Positions 15,001-21,000 of a stretch of 64,000 bases of DNA are shown in pieces. Location of the stretch: the NCBI GenBank assembly GCA_965228475.1, contig OZ245817.1:1824001-1888000 (forward strand). Direction: 5' to 3'. How positions within the stretch are numbered: position 1 is the first letter of the stretch; each line of letters starts with the position of its first letter. Made by a program: the position numbers. The DNA comes from Myxococcota bacterium. Lineage in GTDB: Bacteria; Myxococcota_A; UBA9160; JAFDDA01.

Positions 15001-18000
15001 GGTTCTCCGGAGGCCGCGGCCGCCGAGTTCCGGATCGTGACCTTCCACAAGCCGCCCTACACGAACCTGTGGGACGCGACGAACATCCTCTTCTGCATCT
15101 TCGGAGGGTCGGGCTACACGGGCGAGACCTCGGTGCGGACGAACTGGGTGCCGCTGTTCGAATTCTTCGACGTGGACCTGGTCGTCTCGGGCCACACCCA
15201 CTCCTACCAGCACGGAGAACAGAACGGCGTGCACTACGTGCTCGTGGGCGGGGCAGGGGGGTCCCTCGACACCTTCTGCGGTGGGGACTGGCCGCTCTTC
15301 GACTTCGAGGCGAGCTCGCACGGCTACAGCATGATGGACGTGAACGGCACGAACCTGACGTGGACGTCCTACGACGACAACGACGTCACGATCCACAGCT
15401 TCTCGATCAACCACTAGGCGTCGAGCGCCGCGGCCGGATTCGCTCGCGAGCTAGGGGCGGACGCGTCCGAAGCGCGAGAAGACCTCGAGCAGCTCCTTCA
15501 TCTTCTTCTTGCGCTCCGCCGGCCGCCCGCTCTCGACGGCGCCGGTGACGCAGGTGTCGACGTGGGATTCGAGCACGAGGTGGCCGACGCGGTCGAGGGC
15601 GGCCTCGGCCGCGGCGATCTGGTGGAGCACGTCCACGCAGTAGCGGTCTTCGTCGACCATGCGGCGGATGCCTTCGACCTGGCCTGCGATGCGCGAAAGG
15701 CGCGTCTGGACCTGCTTGCGAACCTTCGGCTTCACCGGACTTCTCCTGGGTTCGGGCCGCACCCGGCGGCCGACGAACCATACACGACGAAGGCCATCCC
15801 GATGCTGGGCGATGGGGCTGGCGCGGGATCGTACGCCGGACTTGCGGCGGGCGGGCCCGGGGCTCGCTATCCCCAGGCTGCGGCGGCGCGGGGGTTCTCG
15901 AACTCCGAGCTCTCGAACCGGCCGCGCAGGGAGGCTCGGGGCCGCGATGGGCGAAGGATCGGTCGGGGACGGGCAGGGGGAGGCGCCGGGGGCGAAGCGG
16001 CGAGCCGCCCTCGGCTTCGTGGCCGTCCTCGTGGTCATCGTCGGGCTGGCCGGGGTGCTGCGGGGGGCCTCCTCCGTCGCCGTCGTCCAGCCGGACCGCG
16101 TCGAACTCACCGGCCCCGGCGACCCCTACTACCACCTGCGCCGCGTGGTCTACGCAGCGGTGAATTTCCCCGAGTCGCTCTCGGTGGACCCGTATCTCAA
16201 CTTTCCGACCGGCGGCGCCGTGGTCTGGCCGGCGACCTTCGATTCCGGGGTGGCCGCGGTCGCCCGCGTGCTCGCGGGGTCGGACGTCGCGGCGATCGAG
16301 CGCGTCGCGGTCTGGGCGCCGGCCGTCCTCGGAGCCATCGCGGCGGGGCTCGCCGCCGTCGTTGCGGGCGTCTACTTCGGGGGCACCGCCGGCACCGTCG
16401 CGGGCTTGCTGGTGGCCCTGCTGCCCGTCCACCTGATGAGTTCCCAGGTCGGGCAGCTCGACCACCACGTGGCGGTGAACGGGTTCACGCTCGCCCTGCT
16501 GGCCGCGGGGCTGTCCTTCGTCGGCGGCGGGGCGGCGCTCGGGCGGAGTATCGCGCTCGGCGTGGCCTTCGCCGGCGGCCTGCTGCTCTGGCCGGGGGCG
16601 CTCGTCCACGTCGGGTTGCTCCAGGGAATCCTCGGCGTGTGGGTCCTCGGTGCCGCGACGTGCGAGGAGGCCCGGCGGCGCGCGCACGGCCTGGCGATCG
16701 CCCACGTCGTGGCGGGGGTGGTGCTCGCCCCGTTCTGCCTGGGGCGGGTGTGGCCGGAGTTCGGCGCCTGGTCGCCCTTCGTACTGTCGAACGTGCAGCC
16801 GATCTGGTTCGCGAGCGGCGCCGTCGCCCTGCTCGTGGCCGCCGAGCTGTGGCGCCGCACCCCGCTTGGCGAAGGCCCCCTCTCTCGGGCCGGGTCGGCC
16901 TTCGCGCTCGTCGCCGCGGGGATCGGCGTCGCGCTCCTGGCCCAGCCGGCGCTTCGCGAAGCGCTGCTCGAGGGGGCGGGCTGGTTCGGCAAGGCCGAAG
17001 ATTTCCAGACCCACGTGGCGGAGCTGGCCCCGCTCTCGCCGCAAACGGCGCTGCTCGACTACACCCCGCTGCTCCTCGCGTTCCCGCTCGTGTGGGCCTG
17101 GCTGTGGAAGCGCGAGGAGGCGGCACCGCTTCGGGTGCTGCTCGCCTTTGCGGGCGCTTTCTTCGTGCTGGCTTGCGTCCAGCAGCGCTTCGGCAACAGC
17201 TTCTCGGTTCTCCTGGCCGTCGTCTCGGGGGTCGCGGCCCAGGCGCTCTGGCGATCGTGGCGCCGCGATGCCTCCGGCAACCGCTCGCTCGTGGCGTTCG
17301 GGCTGTTGCTCGCGCTGGCGACCACCGCGGCGCTCGGCCGGTTCCATCTCCAACGCTTCGCCGAGGTCGGCGCGGCTCGAGCGGACCCGATCCTCGCGCG
17401 GCGCGGCCCGCTCCCGGAGCGGTTCCACGCCGTCTCGCGTGCTGCGGACTGGCTCGGCGATCACTCGCCCGAAACCTCCGGGTGGCTCGATGCACGCCAG
17501 CGGCCCGAGTACGGCGTGCTCTCGGCGTGGGATGCGGGGCACCTCGTTCGCTACCGCGCCCGCCGCCCCATGCTCCAGGACAACTTCGGCGTCTACGGGG
17601 GCCGCGAGAACTACGAAGCGGCCTGGCGCTTCTACGCATCCGAGGACGAGGCCACCGGCGTCGCGCTGCTCGCCGCGCGCGACATCCGCTACGTCCTGGC
17701 CGACGAAGCGGGCGCCGGGACGCCGGTGCCCTACGCGCCGACGTCGATCGCCATGCGCATGGCCCGGGCGCTCGGGAGCGAAACCGTCCTGGCCGGCGCC
17801 GATGGCGCGCGCGTCACCGTCGAAGCGCTGCGCCACCATCGACTGGTCCACTACGCACGCTCCGGTGCCGGGCAGGAGCTGCCGGCGCGGCTTCCCGAGG
17901 CGGCCGTCGGCGTGTGGGAACGCGTGGCCGGCGCGCGCGTCGAGGGATCCGCCGCTCCGGGAGCCGCGGTCGAAGCGGTCCTCCCGCTCGAGATCGGCGG

Positions 18001-21000
18001 TGCCCGAACGCGTTACCGGCAGACCGCCCGCGCCGATGCCCGGGGCCGCTACACGCTGGTGCTTCCCTACGCAACCGAGGCGGCGGCCCCGGGGCGAGGG
18101 GGCGTGCGCGTGGGGCGAGCCTACGTCCTGCGGGCCGCGAGCGGCCGGGCGCGACTCGTCGTGCCGGAAGCGGCGGTCCAGGAGGGAAGGGCCTTGGAGG
18201 GTCCTACCCTCTAGGGGGCCTCCAGAGGGCTCGGCGGGGCCCGGGCTGCCACAACGGGCGGCGGGCAACCACTGACCGGGTATGAAGAATCCCCGGTTCT
18301 CGCTGCGTTGGGCCCTGGCTTCTGCACTCCTGCTCGGGGCGGCGGCCCCGGCCTCGGCGGCGCCGATCCAGCGCCAGTTCGAGGCCGTCCTCGCCCTGCA
18401 CTCGGGCCTCGTGCCGACCGTCTTCTTCAGCGGCAGCGGCACGGCCACCGTGGACGCGGTCGACGATCACGTCTTCGGACTGACCCTGCCCGCCGGGATC
18501 TTCGCGACCCAGCAGACCGTGGGCATTCCGGGCCTCGAGGTGCGGGTCGATGCCTCGAACGGAGCGGGCCAATTCACGACGGGCAGCGGGACCTGGTTCG
18601 GCTCGATGCCGATCCTCGGGAACCTTCGGGTCTGCCTCGGTGGAACGTGCGACTCGATGCCCTTCGCCGACGTCTCCCTGCCACTGAACGTCGTCGGCGC
18701 TGGCGGAACGACGACCGCCTCGAGCGGGGCCTTCGTCGTTTCGGGAAGCCCGTGGCAGACCACCACGACGATCCTCTCCGGGACCGGGTTCATCTCGTAC
18801 TTCGGCGGCTACCAGGAAGGGCCGGCGGGGACGACTTCGAGCACCGCCCTCACCGGCGGCTTCATGCTGTTCGTGACGCCGGTGAACGTCTCGATCCCGA
18901 ACCTCGGGAGCATCGACTTCGTGGCCGAACTCGGGATCACCTTCGTGCCCGAGCCCTTCGCCCTGGCGCTGCTCGGCTCGGGCGCGTTGGGTCTGCTCTG
19001 GGTCGTGCGCCGGGGTTAGTCAGCGACAGGCCGCGAGAGGATCACTCACGAGGCGTTCGCCGAGATCGCGGAAGGGCCGTTGCAGGGAGTCGTCGGTGAT
19101 GCCCGCGGCGAGCTCTTCGACCAGACGCCGGGCAAGCGCCGCCTCGCGCGCTGCCCCTCCCGCGTCGCCTCGCCGCCGCCCGATCTCCGCCAGCAGGCCG
19201 TGGGCTCGCCACTGGACGGGCGGGTACTCGAGCCGCTCCGCGATCTGGAGGGCCTGGCGGAGCGCGGCCTCCGCGTCCTCGCGGAGGTCCATGCTCAGGA
19301 GCACCTGGCCCTCGAGGCACCGCGCACGCGCTTCGATCTTCGGGGACCGGTGCCGCCCTGCCTGTTCGATCTCGGTGGCGACGTGGGTGCGCGCGAGCTC
19401 GGGATTGCCGCGGGCGAGGGCGAGCCGTGCGCGGGCATCCTCCATGTGGAGGTGGTAGCGCCAGTGCTGCCACGGGTCGTCCGGGCGCTCGACGGTCTCG
19501 CGGAGCGGCTCCAGGACGTCCTCGGCCTGGTTCGGCTCGCCGAGCGAGAGGAGGTTACCGGCGAGGTTGATCCCGCCGTTCGCGTGGAGTTCGGGAGCAC
19601 CAGCGACGAGGCCCTCTTCCACGAGCCGGCTCCCGAGCTCGGTCGCGACCTGGTTGTAGCCCCGGGCCTGGCCGGCGCAGCCGATCTCGGCGTGGAGCCA
19701 GCCGATGGTGTTGAGCATGCGCGCCACCATCGCGCGGGCGCCGATGCGCTGGCAGCGCCCGAGCCCGGCCCGCAGGGTCTCGAGCGCCCGGGCGTATTGC
19801 CCCGTGCACCCGAGAGCGAGCCCGAGCACCCAGCTCGGGTAGGTGACGGCGCTGGTCGCGCGCAGTTCCCGGGCCACTTCGAGCGTGCGCTCGGCGATCT
19901 GCGCCGCGTGGGAGAACCGCCCGATCTGTTCGGCGAACAGCGCCTCCTGGGAGAGCGCCCAGGCCAGCGCTTCCGGGTCGTCGCACTGTCTCGCCAGGCG
20001 CGACGTCTCGGCGGCGGCGTCGTCGATCACGCTCGGGCCGTGGGTCGTCATCTCGTAGAGGTCCGACGCCACGCGGACCATCACCTCTGCGGGAACGCTC
20101 CCGTGCTTGCGAGCGGCGGCGAGGCCGCGCTCGGCGACCGCCTTGAAGTCGTCGTAGAGGTGCCCCCAGACGTAGCTGAGCCCGGCGCGCGCGAGGTTGA
20201 GCGCAGATTCGCGGCCCTCCCCGAAGAGCTCGGCCGCACGTTCGTGGGCCTTCCCCGAGCCGGGGAAATCATTCAGGCAGAAGAGGGTCGTCCCGAGCCG
20301 TTCGAACATCGTGGCGCGTTCGGCCGCCGGGCGCTCGAGCCGTTCCGCGATCGCCAGGGCCTGCCTTCCGTGCTCGGCCGCCGAAGCGTTGGCGTAGGCG
20401 GCGATCGCCTTCTCTTCTGCGCGCTGGCTGTAGAGAAGCGCCTTCTCCCATTCCTCGCCCCGGGTGAAGTGATGGGCGAGCGCCTCGTAGTGCTCGGCCA
20501 GGCGATCCGCGTAGAGCTCCTCGATGGCGAGGCCGACCACGCGGTGGAGGGCGCGCCGGCGCTGCTCGAGCAGGCTCTCGTAGGCGACGTCGTGGGTGAG
20601 CGCGTGCTTGAACATGTAGGCGAGTTCGGGGTGCGCCGACTTCTGGTAGATCAGCTCGACGGCGCGGAGCTCCTCGACGACGTCGCCGAGTGCCTGACCC
20701 TGGGAGACGATCCGTTCGAGCAGCCGCAGCGCGAACTCGCGGCCGATCACGGCGGCGGTCTGCAGGGCCTGCTTCGGACCGTCGTCGAGGCGGTCGAGGC
20801 GCGCGGCCAGGACGTCCTGGATTCGGTCCGGGACGGATCCTTCCGCAACGCCGGGGGCCATCTCGATGCGCCCTTCGTGGACCCGGACCGCGTCGGTTTC
20901 GCGCAGGGACTTCGTCACCTCCTCGACGAAGAACGGGTTTCCTTCCGCCTTCTCCGTGATGAGGGCGTGAAGGTCCTGCGGGACGCTCGCGGCGCCGAGC

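Follow-up and report, generated by a model that had tools for sequence, protein, structure and literature searches.

What do five oligosaccharyltransferases (OSTs) of archaeal type, none carrying the WWDYG motif, do in a bacterium? The question is raised by a gene of the window analysed here, a stretch of 64,000 nucleotides from a Myxococcota bacterium. The initial annotation had described this gene as one of five AglB paralogues with a degenerate motif, forming a multi-enzyme glycosylation system in which each member follows its own acceptor rule. The features of the locus are listed in Table 1. The open reading frame of the window copy (paralogue A) has no internal stop in translation and is preceded by a GGAGG sequence 12 nt 5' of its ATG.

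Table 1. Features of the paralogue A locus (positions in the window).
Feature	Position	Strand	Basis
AglB/STT3-type GT-C glycosyltransferase, paralogue A of five, 755 aa	15947..18214	+	Intact ORF, Pfam, AF2 model
D59 codon (GDPYYHLRR), first acidic catalytic/metal motif, external loop 1 (EL1)	16121..16123	+	Opposite Asp of AfAglB-L GGNDPWYY
D172-H173-H174 codons (LDHH), second metal-binding motif	16460..16468	+	Opposite AfAglB-L NDHH
V357-A358-E359 codons, EL5 TIXE/SVSE counterpart	17015..17023	+	Opposite AfAglB-L TIAE
Q412-Q-R414-F415 codons, counterpart of AfAglB-L QNRF	17180..17191	+	Conserved Arg
A527-W-D-A-G-H532 codons, WWDYG position	17525..17542	+	Opposite WWDYGH of AfAglB-L
AglB_L1 beta-sandwich, C-terminal, residues 662-749	17930..18193	+	PF18079, E 4.2e-16; opposite AfAglB-L residues 767-864
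Secreted 245-aa Gly/Thr/Ser-rich protein with PEP-CTERM-like tail, 68 bp past the paralogue A stop	18282..19019	+	Translation

As annotated, the product exceeds the Pfam cut-offs for AglB_L1 (59.3 bits, cut-off 23.6), AglB_core-like (37.7 bits, cut-off 27) and STT3 (29.7 bits, cut-off 24.5). Its top NCBIfam match is TIGR04154, the archaeosortase-A-associated OST. A phmmer search against the PDB retrieved Archaeoglobus fulgidus AglB-L (5gmy) with an E-value of 5.4e-9, practically the value first reported (5e-9), YGVLSAWDAGHL lying opposite YGVISWWDYGHW. The AF2 model (pLDDT 90.7, pTM 0.90) has its best fold match in AfAglB-L (7e9s, E 3.4e-30, TM 0.78, 18% identity), with STT3A/B, DPY19, PglB (6gxc, E 3.2e-9, TM 0.49) and ArnT further down, and a profile of the family matches AfAglB-L over its full length (E 5.8e-66). 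By sequence and predicted structure, paralogue A, and with it the other four copies, falls in a large bacterial branch of the AglB-L-type OSTs known from archaea (GT66, GT-C fold).

A search of the bacterium's own genome returned five matches, all intact ORFs and all at the loci given by the initial annotation. The encoded proteins measure 755, 749, 742, 763 and 765 aa; identity with the window copy is 48, 43, 40 and 34% for the other four, in line with the 33-47% identity and 742-765 aa first noted. Re-reading of the motif column gave AWDAG, SWDAG, NWGVG, NWSDG and FWANG, WWDYG being missing in all five as claimed. Retention of the acidic metal/catalytic motifs was also confirmed: D59, D172-H173-H174, E359, Q412/R414/F415, P520-E-Y, W528, G531 and H532 are identical in the five proteins. 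The copies are distributed among five different subclades of the family, with clade-typical motifs, and their divergence is old. The sequences support five real, intact and catalytically equipped AglB-type enzymes whose activity is predicted.

The initial annotation had presented the divergent enzyme set as new. However, none of 161 full-length family members carries WWDYG (one has WWDLG), and the consensus at this position is x-W-x-x-G-H. A protein search of the order with paralogue A (E<=1e-10) gave a match in 118 of 193 genomes, compared with 102 of 192 obtained initially with a Pfam model. In a sample of the phylum, PF18079 matched 74 of 401 genomes, and 2421 representatives, canonical AglB relatives counted in, were retrieved at E<=1e-30. 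A literature search found no paper on a bacterial AglB-like family devoid of WWDYG. Calling the motif degenerate is misleading, since few columns in the protein are as well conserved as its Trp, Gly and His. These three change 9 (W528), 2 (G531) and 2 (H532) times on the tree, against 67 for the median column, which places them at or below the 6th rate percentile of 682 columns. Columns 527, 529 and 530 change 75, 70 and 78 times (52nd-65th percentile) and carry phylogenetic signal (70-78 changes versus 98-108 in shuffles). The missing WWDYG is a trait of a large family across the order and neither decay nor a peculiarity of this bacterium.

The catalytic residues are under much stronger constraint. 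Neither the EL1 Asp (D59; 164/164 non-gap rows) nor the Arg of QxRF (R414; 169/169) shows a single change on the tree; the latter presumably binds the lipid phosphate, the role of the Arg in AfAglB-L QNRF. In LDHH, the three residues are kept in 167/167, 167/167 and 165/167 non-gap rows, and the EL5 V/I-x-E element has Val in 152 rows, Ile in 11 and Glu in 167 of 169. All catalytic residues are included in the 24 columns that undergo at most three changes over the 161 sequences. The V/I-x-E element resembles TIXE/SVSE, which pairs with the acceptor peptide backbone according to PMC12229607. The disappearance of the canonical motif might suggest inactive relics or scaffold pseudoenzymes, but this is highly improbable in view of the five intact ORFs, the near-invariant columns and the size of the family.

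The +2 Ser/Thr pocket of canonical OSTs is built from the WWD element and the DK-motif Lys. Paralogues A and B are among the 34 of 172 rows with Asp at the third motif position; elsewhere Gly (49 rows), Ser (29) and Thr (14) occur there. When AfAglB-S1 (3vgp) was aligned by HMM, the column opposite the Lys of NNTKFPAI has Pro in 79 of 172 rows, and Lys is outside its five commonest residues; the alignment is of low confidence in this region. The family has nothing aligned to residues ~614-648 of AfAglB-L, an insertion that includes the ETGKYYAM segment taken here as the DK motif. These comparisons support a loss of the +2 pocket residues, those of WWD and, by alignment, the DK-motif Lys. Ordinary N-x-S/T OSTs would then need residues outside WWD and DK to recognise the +2 hydroxyl. 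The near-invariance of the second Trp, the Gly and the next His is consistent with this, as are the Asp of paralogues A and B and the functional Desulfovibrio PglBs that tolerate WWDWG, and NL for DK/MI (PMC12229607). However, the tolerated deviations in known OSTs retain W-W-D, whereas the first Trp occurs here in 1 of 161 sequences, the Asp position is Gly, Ser or Thr in the rows counted above, and no one replacement residue is conserved family-wide. Ordinary sequon recognition is quite unlikely.

The positions that separate the subclades lean to the predicted acceptor site. When columns were ranked by mutual information with subclade, an exploratory measure (45-95 sequences in 8-11 groups) that favours high-entropy columns, the motif columns ranked 15-71 of ~694, columns 586-588 and 592 of the DK-equivalent loop 2-20, and column 356, beside the EL5 Glu, 10-24; 14-15 near-motif columns entered the top 35, against 9.3 expected. 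This supports, although it does not establish, paralogue-specific rules. Alternatively, the donor may be what distinguishes the paralogues. Protein Asn-glycosyltransferases differing mainly in donor glycan or expression timing, with motif columns simply freed from constraint and no paralogue-specific acceptor code, would account for several observations. Columns 527, 529 and 530 evolve about as fast as the median column, as would be expected equally from mere loss of constraint and from re-specification. Column 416, adjoining the QxRF Arg, is among the top separating columns, and a GT2 and methyltransferase cassette accompanies only two of the five paralogues, suggesting differing donor supplies. 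However, the motif is often fixed within subclades (all 7 members of the A/B group have WDAG, and most of the C group has NWG), and the DK-equivalent loop (586-592) and motif columns stand in the top 1-10% for subclade separation. We regard enzymes devoid of such a paralogue-specific code as unlikely.

The genomic context provides indications on the donor. As annotated, two copies have GT2 and methyltransferase genes as neighbours, those at contig positions 2562574 and 633937 (paralogues B and D). No glycosylation gene was seen adjoining paralogues A, C and E, so that a single system of five enzymes is not apparent. For the GT2s of paralogues B and D, the best-scoring models are AglJ (TIGR04182, 125 and 228 bits) and those of Dol-P hexose transferases; in the PDB their best matches are the Pyrococcus furiosus Dol-P-mannose synthase (5mlz) and ArnC. 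Searched with the cassette-type GT2 and methyltransferase profiles, the genome gave two leading GT2s at 478 and 404 bits (the third at 188) and two leading methyltransferases at 265 and 248 bits (the third at 96), which are exactly the genes adjoining paralogues B and D, a partly circular result because the profiles were built from clusters holding both own genes. Of 34 homologue ORFs, 8 have such a GT2 within 4 kb, 7 have the methyltransferase and 4 have both, in several subclades. Genes were called here with a crude GC3-based ORF picker, which failed to recognise the homologue in 11 of the 45 loci. Other GT-C genes also recur beside homologues (PMT_2 and two unnamed polytopic families).

Polyprenyl-P-monosaccharide also serves as donor to ArnT and other GT-C enzymes that act on lipids or glycans, for which a polyprenyl-P monosaccharide synthase is the typical donor route. 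Since ArnT-type enzymes share this donor and other GT-C genes recur, gene context does not single out a protein acceptor. A lipid, LPS, exopolysaccharide or cell-wall glycan could receive a (methyl)hexose from polyprenyl phosphate in the manner of ArnT or Gtr, and pocket loss would then correspond to a complete switch of acceptor class. The two unconserved halves of the Ser/Thr pocket, the synthase-like GT2 as recurrent partner and the neighbouring PMT_2-type and other polytopic genes all agree with such an acceptor. In contrast, the characterised top fold matches (AglB, STT3, PglB, DPY19) all act on peptides, the EL1 Asp, EL5 Glu and V/I-x-E (the peptide-pairing TIXE counterpart) are near-invariant, and the entire periplasmic AglB core and L1 domain are kept. 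A non-protein acceptor is rather unlikely.

The gene downstream of paralogue A encodes a protein whose N-terminus resembles a signal peptide and whose C-terminus has VPEP followed by a hydrophobic segment and RRG. It scores 20.9 bits against PF07589 in the genome scan (cut-off 20.7) and 16.6 bits as a protein alone. In the order examined, PEP-CTERM-like genes show no enrichment next to homologues; that this protein is the acceptor of paralogue A is possible but unsupported.

Our preferred reading, tentative at a probability of about 0.45, is that the five enzymes are periplasmic transferases moving sugar from polyprenyl phosphate to proteins without a +2 Ser/Thr check. At the cytoplasmic face, a polyprenyl (undecaprenyl-type) monophosphate would receive a hexose through a DPMS/AglJ-like GT2; this sugar may be modified by the SAM methyltransferase encoded nearby and lengthened by further GTs. 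After the lipid-linked sugar has been flipped to the periplasmic face, the AglB-like enzyme would use its metal site (D59, D172/H173/H174), R414 and the EL1 Asp/EL5 Glu pair, the chemistry by which AglB activates the Asn carboxamide, to transfer the sugar to an acceptor in the periplasm or at the surface. A polypeptide is the most likely acceptor; it would be picked with no hydroxyl check, given that neither the first Trp and the Asp of WWD nor the DK Lys is conserved, and subclade-specific residues at the WWD and DK places may set acceptor or donor preferences for each paralogue. Of the initial proposal, the intact catalytic enzymes, the pocket loss, the five subclades and the separating columns stand, while a protein acceptor, a sequon per paralogue and one common system remain hypothetical.

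Among known systems, the Haloferax volcanii agl pathway comprises AglJ (GT2), AglP (methyltransferase) and AglB, and a trio of these gene types also occurs at paralogues B and D. However, their GT2s remain below the AglJ equivalog cut-off of 325 bits, the cassette methyltransferase matched no AglP-specific model, no further GT or flippase was seen in the two cassettes, and the bacterial carrier is presumably of undecaprenyl type. With the bacterial N-OST PglB of Campylobacter and Desulfovibrio, paralogue A shares superfamily and fold, but the C-terminal domain is different, the family is of the archaeal AglB-L type, the fold is closer to AglB-L by TM score, and PglBs retain WWD(Y/W)G (PMC12229607). 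The closest relative is A. fulgidus AglB-L (PDB 3WAJ, 3WAK, 5GMY, 7E9S), a euryarchaeal single-subunit N-oligosaccharyltransferase (GT66). The bacterial family differs from it by x-W-x-x-G-H in place of WWDYG, by the lack of an aligned counterpart of ETGKYYAM by its diderm host and, in this genome, by the presence of five paralogues, but shares with it the motif order (EL1 Asp, DHH, EL5 x-I/V-x-E, QxRF) and the periplasmic core followed by a C-terminal L1 beta-sandwich.

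The window copy, paralogue A, is one of five AglB-like genes retrieved when its protein is searched against its own 5.0-Mb single-contig genome. A GGAGG lies 12 nt 5' of its ATG. The STT3, AglB_core-like and AglB_L1 domains of its product all exceed their Pfam gathering scores, which places it by sequence in GT66 (PF02516). Its best NCBIfam model is TIGR04154 (oligosaccharyl transferase, archaeosortase A system-associated), with 266.1 bits over residues 26-587 only and a curated cut-off of 450 bits that is not reached. A phmmer search of the PDB sequences matches the Archaeoglobus fulgidus oligosaccharyltransferase AglB-L (AfAglB-L; 5gmy/3waj) at E 5e-9, as reported in the initial annotation, with YGVLSAWDAGHL opposite YGVISWWDYGHW. 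The five proteins are 755, 749, 742, 763 and 765 aa long, and the other four copies (paralogues B to E) are 48, 43, 40 and 34% identical to the window copy over the aligned paralogues. At the position of the WWDYG motif they read AWDAG, SWDAG, NWGVG, NWSDG and FWANG, while D59, D172-H173-H174, E359, Q412/R414/F415, W528, G531 and H532 are invariant. The initial annotation had described five paralogues of 742-765 aa that retain the acidic metal/catalytic motifs and lack WWDYG, two of them beside a GT2 and a methyltransferase gene. All of this stands: the frames are intact in 5/5, D59, D172-H173-H174 and E359 are kept in 5/5, WWDYG is found in 0/5, and the two copies concerned are B and D.

Table. 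Features of the window, neighbourhoods of the five paralogues and columns of the family alignment (residue numbers of the 755-aa paralogue A protein)
Feature	Location	Strand	Description
AglB/STT3-type gene, paralogue A	window 15947-18214	+	open frame, 755 codons; purple-acid-phosphatase-like gene upstream, CsoR-type repressor on opposite strand
STT3 N-terminal domain, paralogue A	residues 59-176		Pfam, 29.7 bits (cut-off 24.5)
AglB core-like domain, paralogue A	residues 501-587		Pfam, 37.7 bits (cut-off 27)
AglB_L1 domain, paralogue A	residues 662-749		Pfam, 59.3 bits (cut-off 23.6)
Gene downstream of paralogue A	window 18282-19019	+	245-aa secreted Gly/Thr/Ser-rich protein, PEP-CTERM-like tail; starts 68 bp 3'
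CsoR/RcnR-type metal-sensing repressor	window 15451-15735	-	94 aa, PF02583, E 1e-28; between phosphatase and AglB-like gene
F420H2-dependent quinone reductase family gene	window 9686-10129	-	PF04075
Zinc-ribbon, adenylate/guanylate cyclase, AAA_16 and TPR protein	window 19023-22544	-	1174 aa; downstream
Protein next after the cyclase protein	window 22638-24458	-	607 aa; no Pfam/NCBIfam match
Context of paralogue B			413-aa GT2 and 184-aa methyltransferase, convergent on B
Context of paralogue C			preceded by Pup-proteasome operon
Pup-proteasome set, just upstream of C	L007:1801-8662 (contig 669800-676664)		complete: Mpa-like AAA ATPase, two Pup-ligase family genes, proteasome subunit
Context of paralogue D			divergent 321-aa GT2, adjoined by 286-aa methyltransferase
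Context of paralogue E			between fused MFS/spermidine-synthase-like membrane protein and 1138-aa beta-propeller protein
MFS-like polytopic domain fused to spermidine-synthase-like domain	L009:4781-7687 (contig 2705780-2708689)		~970-1035 aa; also in five other loci
WWDYG-equivalent position 1	172 rows		Pro 61, Ala 22, Arg 16, Ser 15
WWDYG-equivalent position 2	172 rows		W 157
WWDYG-equivalent position 3	172 rows		Gly 49, Asp 34, Ser 29, Thr 14
WWDYG-equivalent position 4	172 rows		Asp 40, Leu 38, Ala 17
WWDYG-equivalent position 5	172 rows		G 167
WWDYG-equivalent position 6	172 rows		H 167
Mutual-information rank	columns 527, 529, 530		15-71 of ~694
Mutual-information rank	columns 586-588 and 592		2-20 of ~694; loop after RYV(L/V)AD strand
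Mutual-information rank	column 356		10-24 of ~694; beside EL5 Glu
Mutual-information rank	column 416		in top 35; beside Arg of QxRF

An AlphaFold2 model of paralogue A (family alignment A2) reaches pLDDT 90.7 and pTM 0.90. Foldseek ranks AfAglB-L (7e9s_A) first with this model (E 3.4e-30, TM 0.78), next mammalian and yeast STT3 (E 6e-17 to 1e-11), then the C-mannosyltransferase DPY19 and PglB (TM 0.49), and last ArnT. As modelled, paralogue A is a GT-C protein whose polytopic N-terminal part and periplasmic C-terminal domain superpose on a solved oligosaccharyltransferase. The family profile matches AfAglB-L over its whole length (E 5.8e-66). Built from the five paralogues and 15 database relatives, profile A2 retrieved 6803 of 1.84 billion representatives at E<=1e-3 and 2421 at E<=1e-30; the best 150 of the 6803 are all ~750 aa long (E<=1.4e-141). 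The catalytic residues are almost invariant in 172 aligned family rows, counted over non-gap rows: the Asp of external loop 1 (EL1) in 164/164, DHH in 167, 167 and 165 of 167, the Glu of external loop 5 (EL5) in 167/169 and the Arg of QxRF in 169/169. Val or Ile occupies the second position N-terminal of the EL5 Glu in 163 rows. D59, D172-H173-H174 and V357-x-E359 of paralogue A, which form the catalytic and metal signature of GT66, align with AfAglB-L. They correspond to the EL1 Asp, the second D-x-D/D-x-H motif and the Glu of the TIXE/SVSE element in EL5.

The WWDYG (WWDxG) motif forms the +2 Ser/Thr pocket, which a DK or MI motif completes. To our knowledge, every characterised STT3/AglB/PglB enzyme reads N-x-S/T via this pocket. 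The family pattern at this position is x-W-x-x-G-H (172 rows). WWDYG occurs in none of the 161 full-length members, the nearest being WWDLG in a single one (P0149), and the WWDxG of GT66 is absent from all five paralogues. On a FastTree phylogeny of these 161 members, where 682 well-filled columns show a median of 67 changes, columns 527, 529 and 530 changed 75, 70 and 78 times (52nd-65th percentile). W528, G531 and H532 changed 9, 2 and 2 times, and every catalytic residue is among the 24 columns with at most three changes. The structural turn is therefore kept while three side chains are free at the family level; we know of no canonical enzyme in which these three vary. The second half of the pocket may show a similar difference, in alignments that are weak there. 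Residues ~614-648 of AfAglB-L, including 'ETGKYYAM', form an insertion lacking a family counterpart in the profile alignment, and the Lys of 'NNTKFPAI' in the AfAglB-S1 minimal domain (3vgp) falls in the HMM alignment on a column that is Pro in 79/172 rows. If these lysines are those of the DK motif, as we take them to be, both polar halves of the +2 pocket would be missing from the family.

The family comprises hundreds of 50%-identity clusters. The window protein as query finds matches at E<=1e-10 in 118 of the order's 193 genomes (63/101 high-quality genomes, 59/74 genera), and many have at least 2-5 AglB-like matches, with copy numbers capped by the scoring of five candidates per genome. 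In a sample of 401 genomes from the phylum, 74 contain PF18079, with the hits clustering in this order and in a further two families (16/29 and 8/12); of 14 controls, only Haloferax volcanii and Methanosarcina acetivorans contain it. Among named records, the nearest come from MAGs labelled Deltaproteobacteria, Planctomycetota, Vicinamibacteria and Thermoanaerobaculia. In a tree rooted with the three canonical WWDYG sequences available (P0193, P0196, P0197), all bacterial branches already lack the motif and the WWDLG/FWDLG group forms one early branch. The branching points of the paralogues differ greatly in depth: E diverges earliest, D next and C after it, and B is the sister of A; the order of events is tentative because the tree was made with FastTree only and has a thin outgroup.

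The GT2s beside B and D have AglJ TIGR04182 as best model (125 and 228 bits respectively, below the equivalog cut-off of 325), Dol-P hexose transferase models likewise, and their best PDB matches are the P. furiosus Dol-P-mannose synthase 5mlz and ArnC. They are thus predicted to be polyprenyl-phosphate glycosyltransferases. Profiles of the cassette-type GT2 and methyltransferase place these neighbours of B and D at the top of their own genome, with 478 and 404 bits (next 188) and 265 and 248 bits (next 96), values that are partly circular because both own genes sit in the training sets. The CsoR/RcnR-type repressor beside paralogue A has no evident link to the AglB-like gene. The PF04075 family (cluster c27) also occurs near AglB-like homologues in two other loci and is probably lineage background. 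The genome with the Pup-proteasome set is diderm and also carries LolA, MreB and TonB receptors.

The surroundings (~18 kb each) of 40 homologues, taken from 40 further genomes of this order, were analysed for comparison; the sample is non-random, drawn from the top of the match list with at least 8 kb upstream. The crude GC3 filter by which genes were called missed the homologue itself in all but 34 of 45 loci, and the products were clustered jointly with those from the five paralogue loci of this genome. The recurring families in these stretches are AglJ-like GT2s (11/45 loci), methyltransferases (9), sulfatase-family proteins (7), MFS/spermidine-synthase-like fusions (6), PMT_2-type GT-C proteins (4) and two unnamed families with 7-10 hydrophobic segments and no Pfam match, c6 (~550-680 aa; 5) and c23 (~505-573 aa; 3). 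Of the 34 homologues recognised, 8 have a GT2 within 4 kb, 7 a methyltransferase and 4 both, and these homologues belong to several subclades that differ in motif. What recurs as a functionally coherent neighbour is thus a lipid-phosphate sugar synthase, in some loci accompanied by further GT-C enzymes. This speaks for a lipid-linked donor and for a role of the AglB-like family in surface glycosylation; the gene context is compatible with a glycan acceptor as well as with a protein. The neighbouring GT2s are mutually only 20-28% identical (one pair 72%), so divergent that a GT2 profile would fail to tell them from other GT2s.

PMT_2 proteins and unnamed polytopic GT-C-like families stand beside homologues in several loci (L034, L040, L043, L047; L044, L046, L054, L055, L058), a pattern that points to islands of periplasmic glycosyltransferases. 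In six cases (genome:contig G086:C111, G083:C32, G085:C249, G190:C77, G483:C36, G354:C344) a single contig carries two AglB-like paralogues at a distance of 2-25 kb, and a PQQ-dependent dehydrogenase gene separates two paralogues in loci L041 and L061.

The 245-aa protein encoded downstream of paralogue A ends in VPEP, a hydrophobic stretch and RRG. This tail is one of 47 PF07589 matches above the cut-off in the genome (51 at E<=0.01), which also encodes two exosortases. It scores 20.9 bits in the genome search and 16.6 bits, below the cut-off, when the protein is analysed alone. A sorting-signal regular expression gave 10 matches in the 723,787 bases of the 40 foreign loci, or 13.8 per Mb against 15.6 per Mb in the own genome; a match lies within 3 kb in 5/40 loci and is directly adjacent in two. 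By this measure no enrichment of PEP-CTERM genes beside AglB-like homologues is seen, and exosortase is so nearly universal in the order (185/193 genomes) that a phyletic profile cannot discriminate. On these rates, the 16.6-bit score and the spread of exosortase, the PEP-CTERM link was rejected as evidence and is kept as a lead only.

The three variable motif columns carry phylogenetic signal, with 70-78 changes on the tree against 98-108 in shuffles (minimum 91), and motifs are often fixed inside subclades (e.g. WDAG in 7/7 of the A/B group). When the tree was cut into 8-11 groups of at least five sequences and columns were ranked by mutual information with the group, 14-15 of the top 35 lay no more than 15 residues from a catalytic or pocket motif (9.3 expected), nearness being in sequence rather than in space and the raw values ignoring entropy and relatedness. 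High ranks are reached in the loop 586-592, presumably the place of the DK/MI motif in canonical enzymes. This exploratory pattern is as would be expected of paralogue-specific substrate sites and is equally compatible with donor-side differences.

Since the catalytic machinery is under strong selection and the WWD pocket has been given up, this branch must select its substrate differently. The non-N-x-S/T acceptor rule proposed in the initial annotation is well grounded at the family level (WWDYG in 0/161), whereas the protein acceptor and the separate rule for each paralogue that went with it are better put in the conditional. We give a probability of about 0.45 to the family being a protein-directed, lipid-phosphate-sugar-dependent transferase without a +2 check. 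The kinship with AfAglB-L and STT3 agrees with this; the neighbourhoods would serve a non-protein acceptor as well, an alternative that we consider unlikely but serious. Slightly less likely is that the paralogues differ in donor side or regulation, which the column ranking would accommodate as readily as differing acceptor sites. A cryptic canonical sequon would have to be read by residues other than those of WWD and DK and appears improbable. Catalytic columns that are invariant (at most three changes on the 161-member tree) lead us to reject pseudoenzymes, which have hardly any credit left.

A protein-directed transferase without a +2 check could be taken further, as a widespread unstudied bacterial glycosylation machinery of archaeal ancestry. 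It would transfer a sugar, which may be methylated, from polyprenyl phosphate to Asn or a different residue under new non-N-x-S/T rules, with subfamilies, five of them coexisting here, reading different motifs via rewritten WWDYG/DK positions. This fuller proposal is rather unlikely; if true, the family would be a natural toolbox of orthogonal 'sequons'. A bacterial branch of this size, present in most genomes of the order and often in several copies, bears on the evolution of sequon recognition. Through it, uncultured diderm bacteria may modify their surface in a way not described so far, and glyco-engineering may gain enzymes that act at new sites. The cassette of B and D, made up of a GT2, a methyltransferase and an AglB-like gene, is a compact three-gene unit open to direct expression and assay.

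A literature search covering few subscription journals found no publication on a bacterial AglB-type family lacking WWDYG. Functional ALG1/ALG2 homologues are described from Polyangia, Binatia, 'Deltaproteobacteria' and Methylomirabilota in a preprint (10.1101/2025.10.15.682550) whose accessible text draws no link between them and an oligosaccharyltransferase. According to the accessible parts of Lombard 2016 (PMC4973528), a few bacterial Stt3/AglB homologues fall within the euryarchaeal ones, and two or more transfers from archaea to bacteria are inferred, which is consistent with the picture here; the WWDYG-less family itself is not covered in those parts. Functional Desulfovibrio PglBs, as presented in the available sections of PMC12229607, deviate only mildly from the canonical motifs (WWDWG; NL for DK/MI), and the TIXE/SVSE element pairs with the acceptor backbone.
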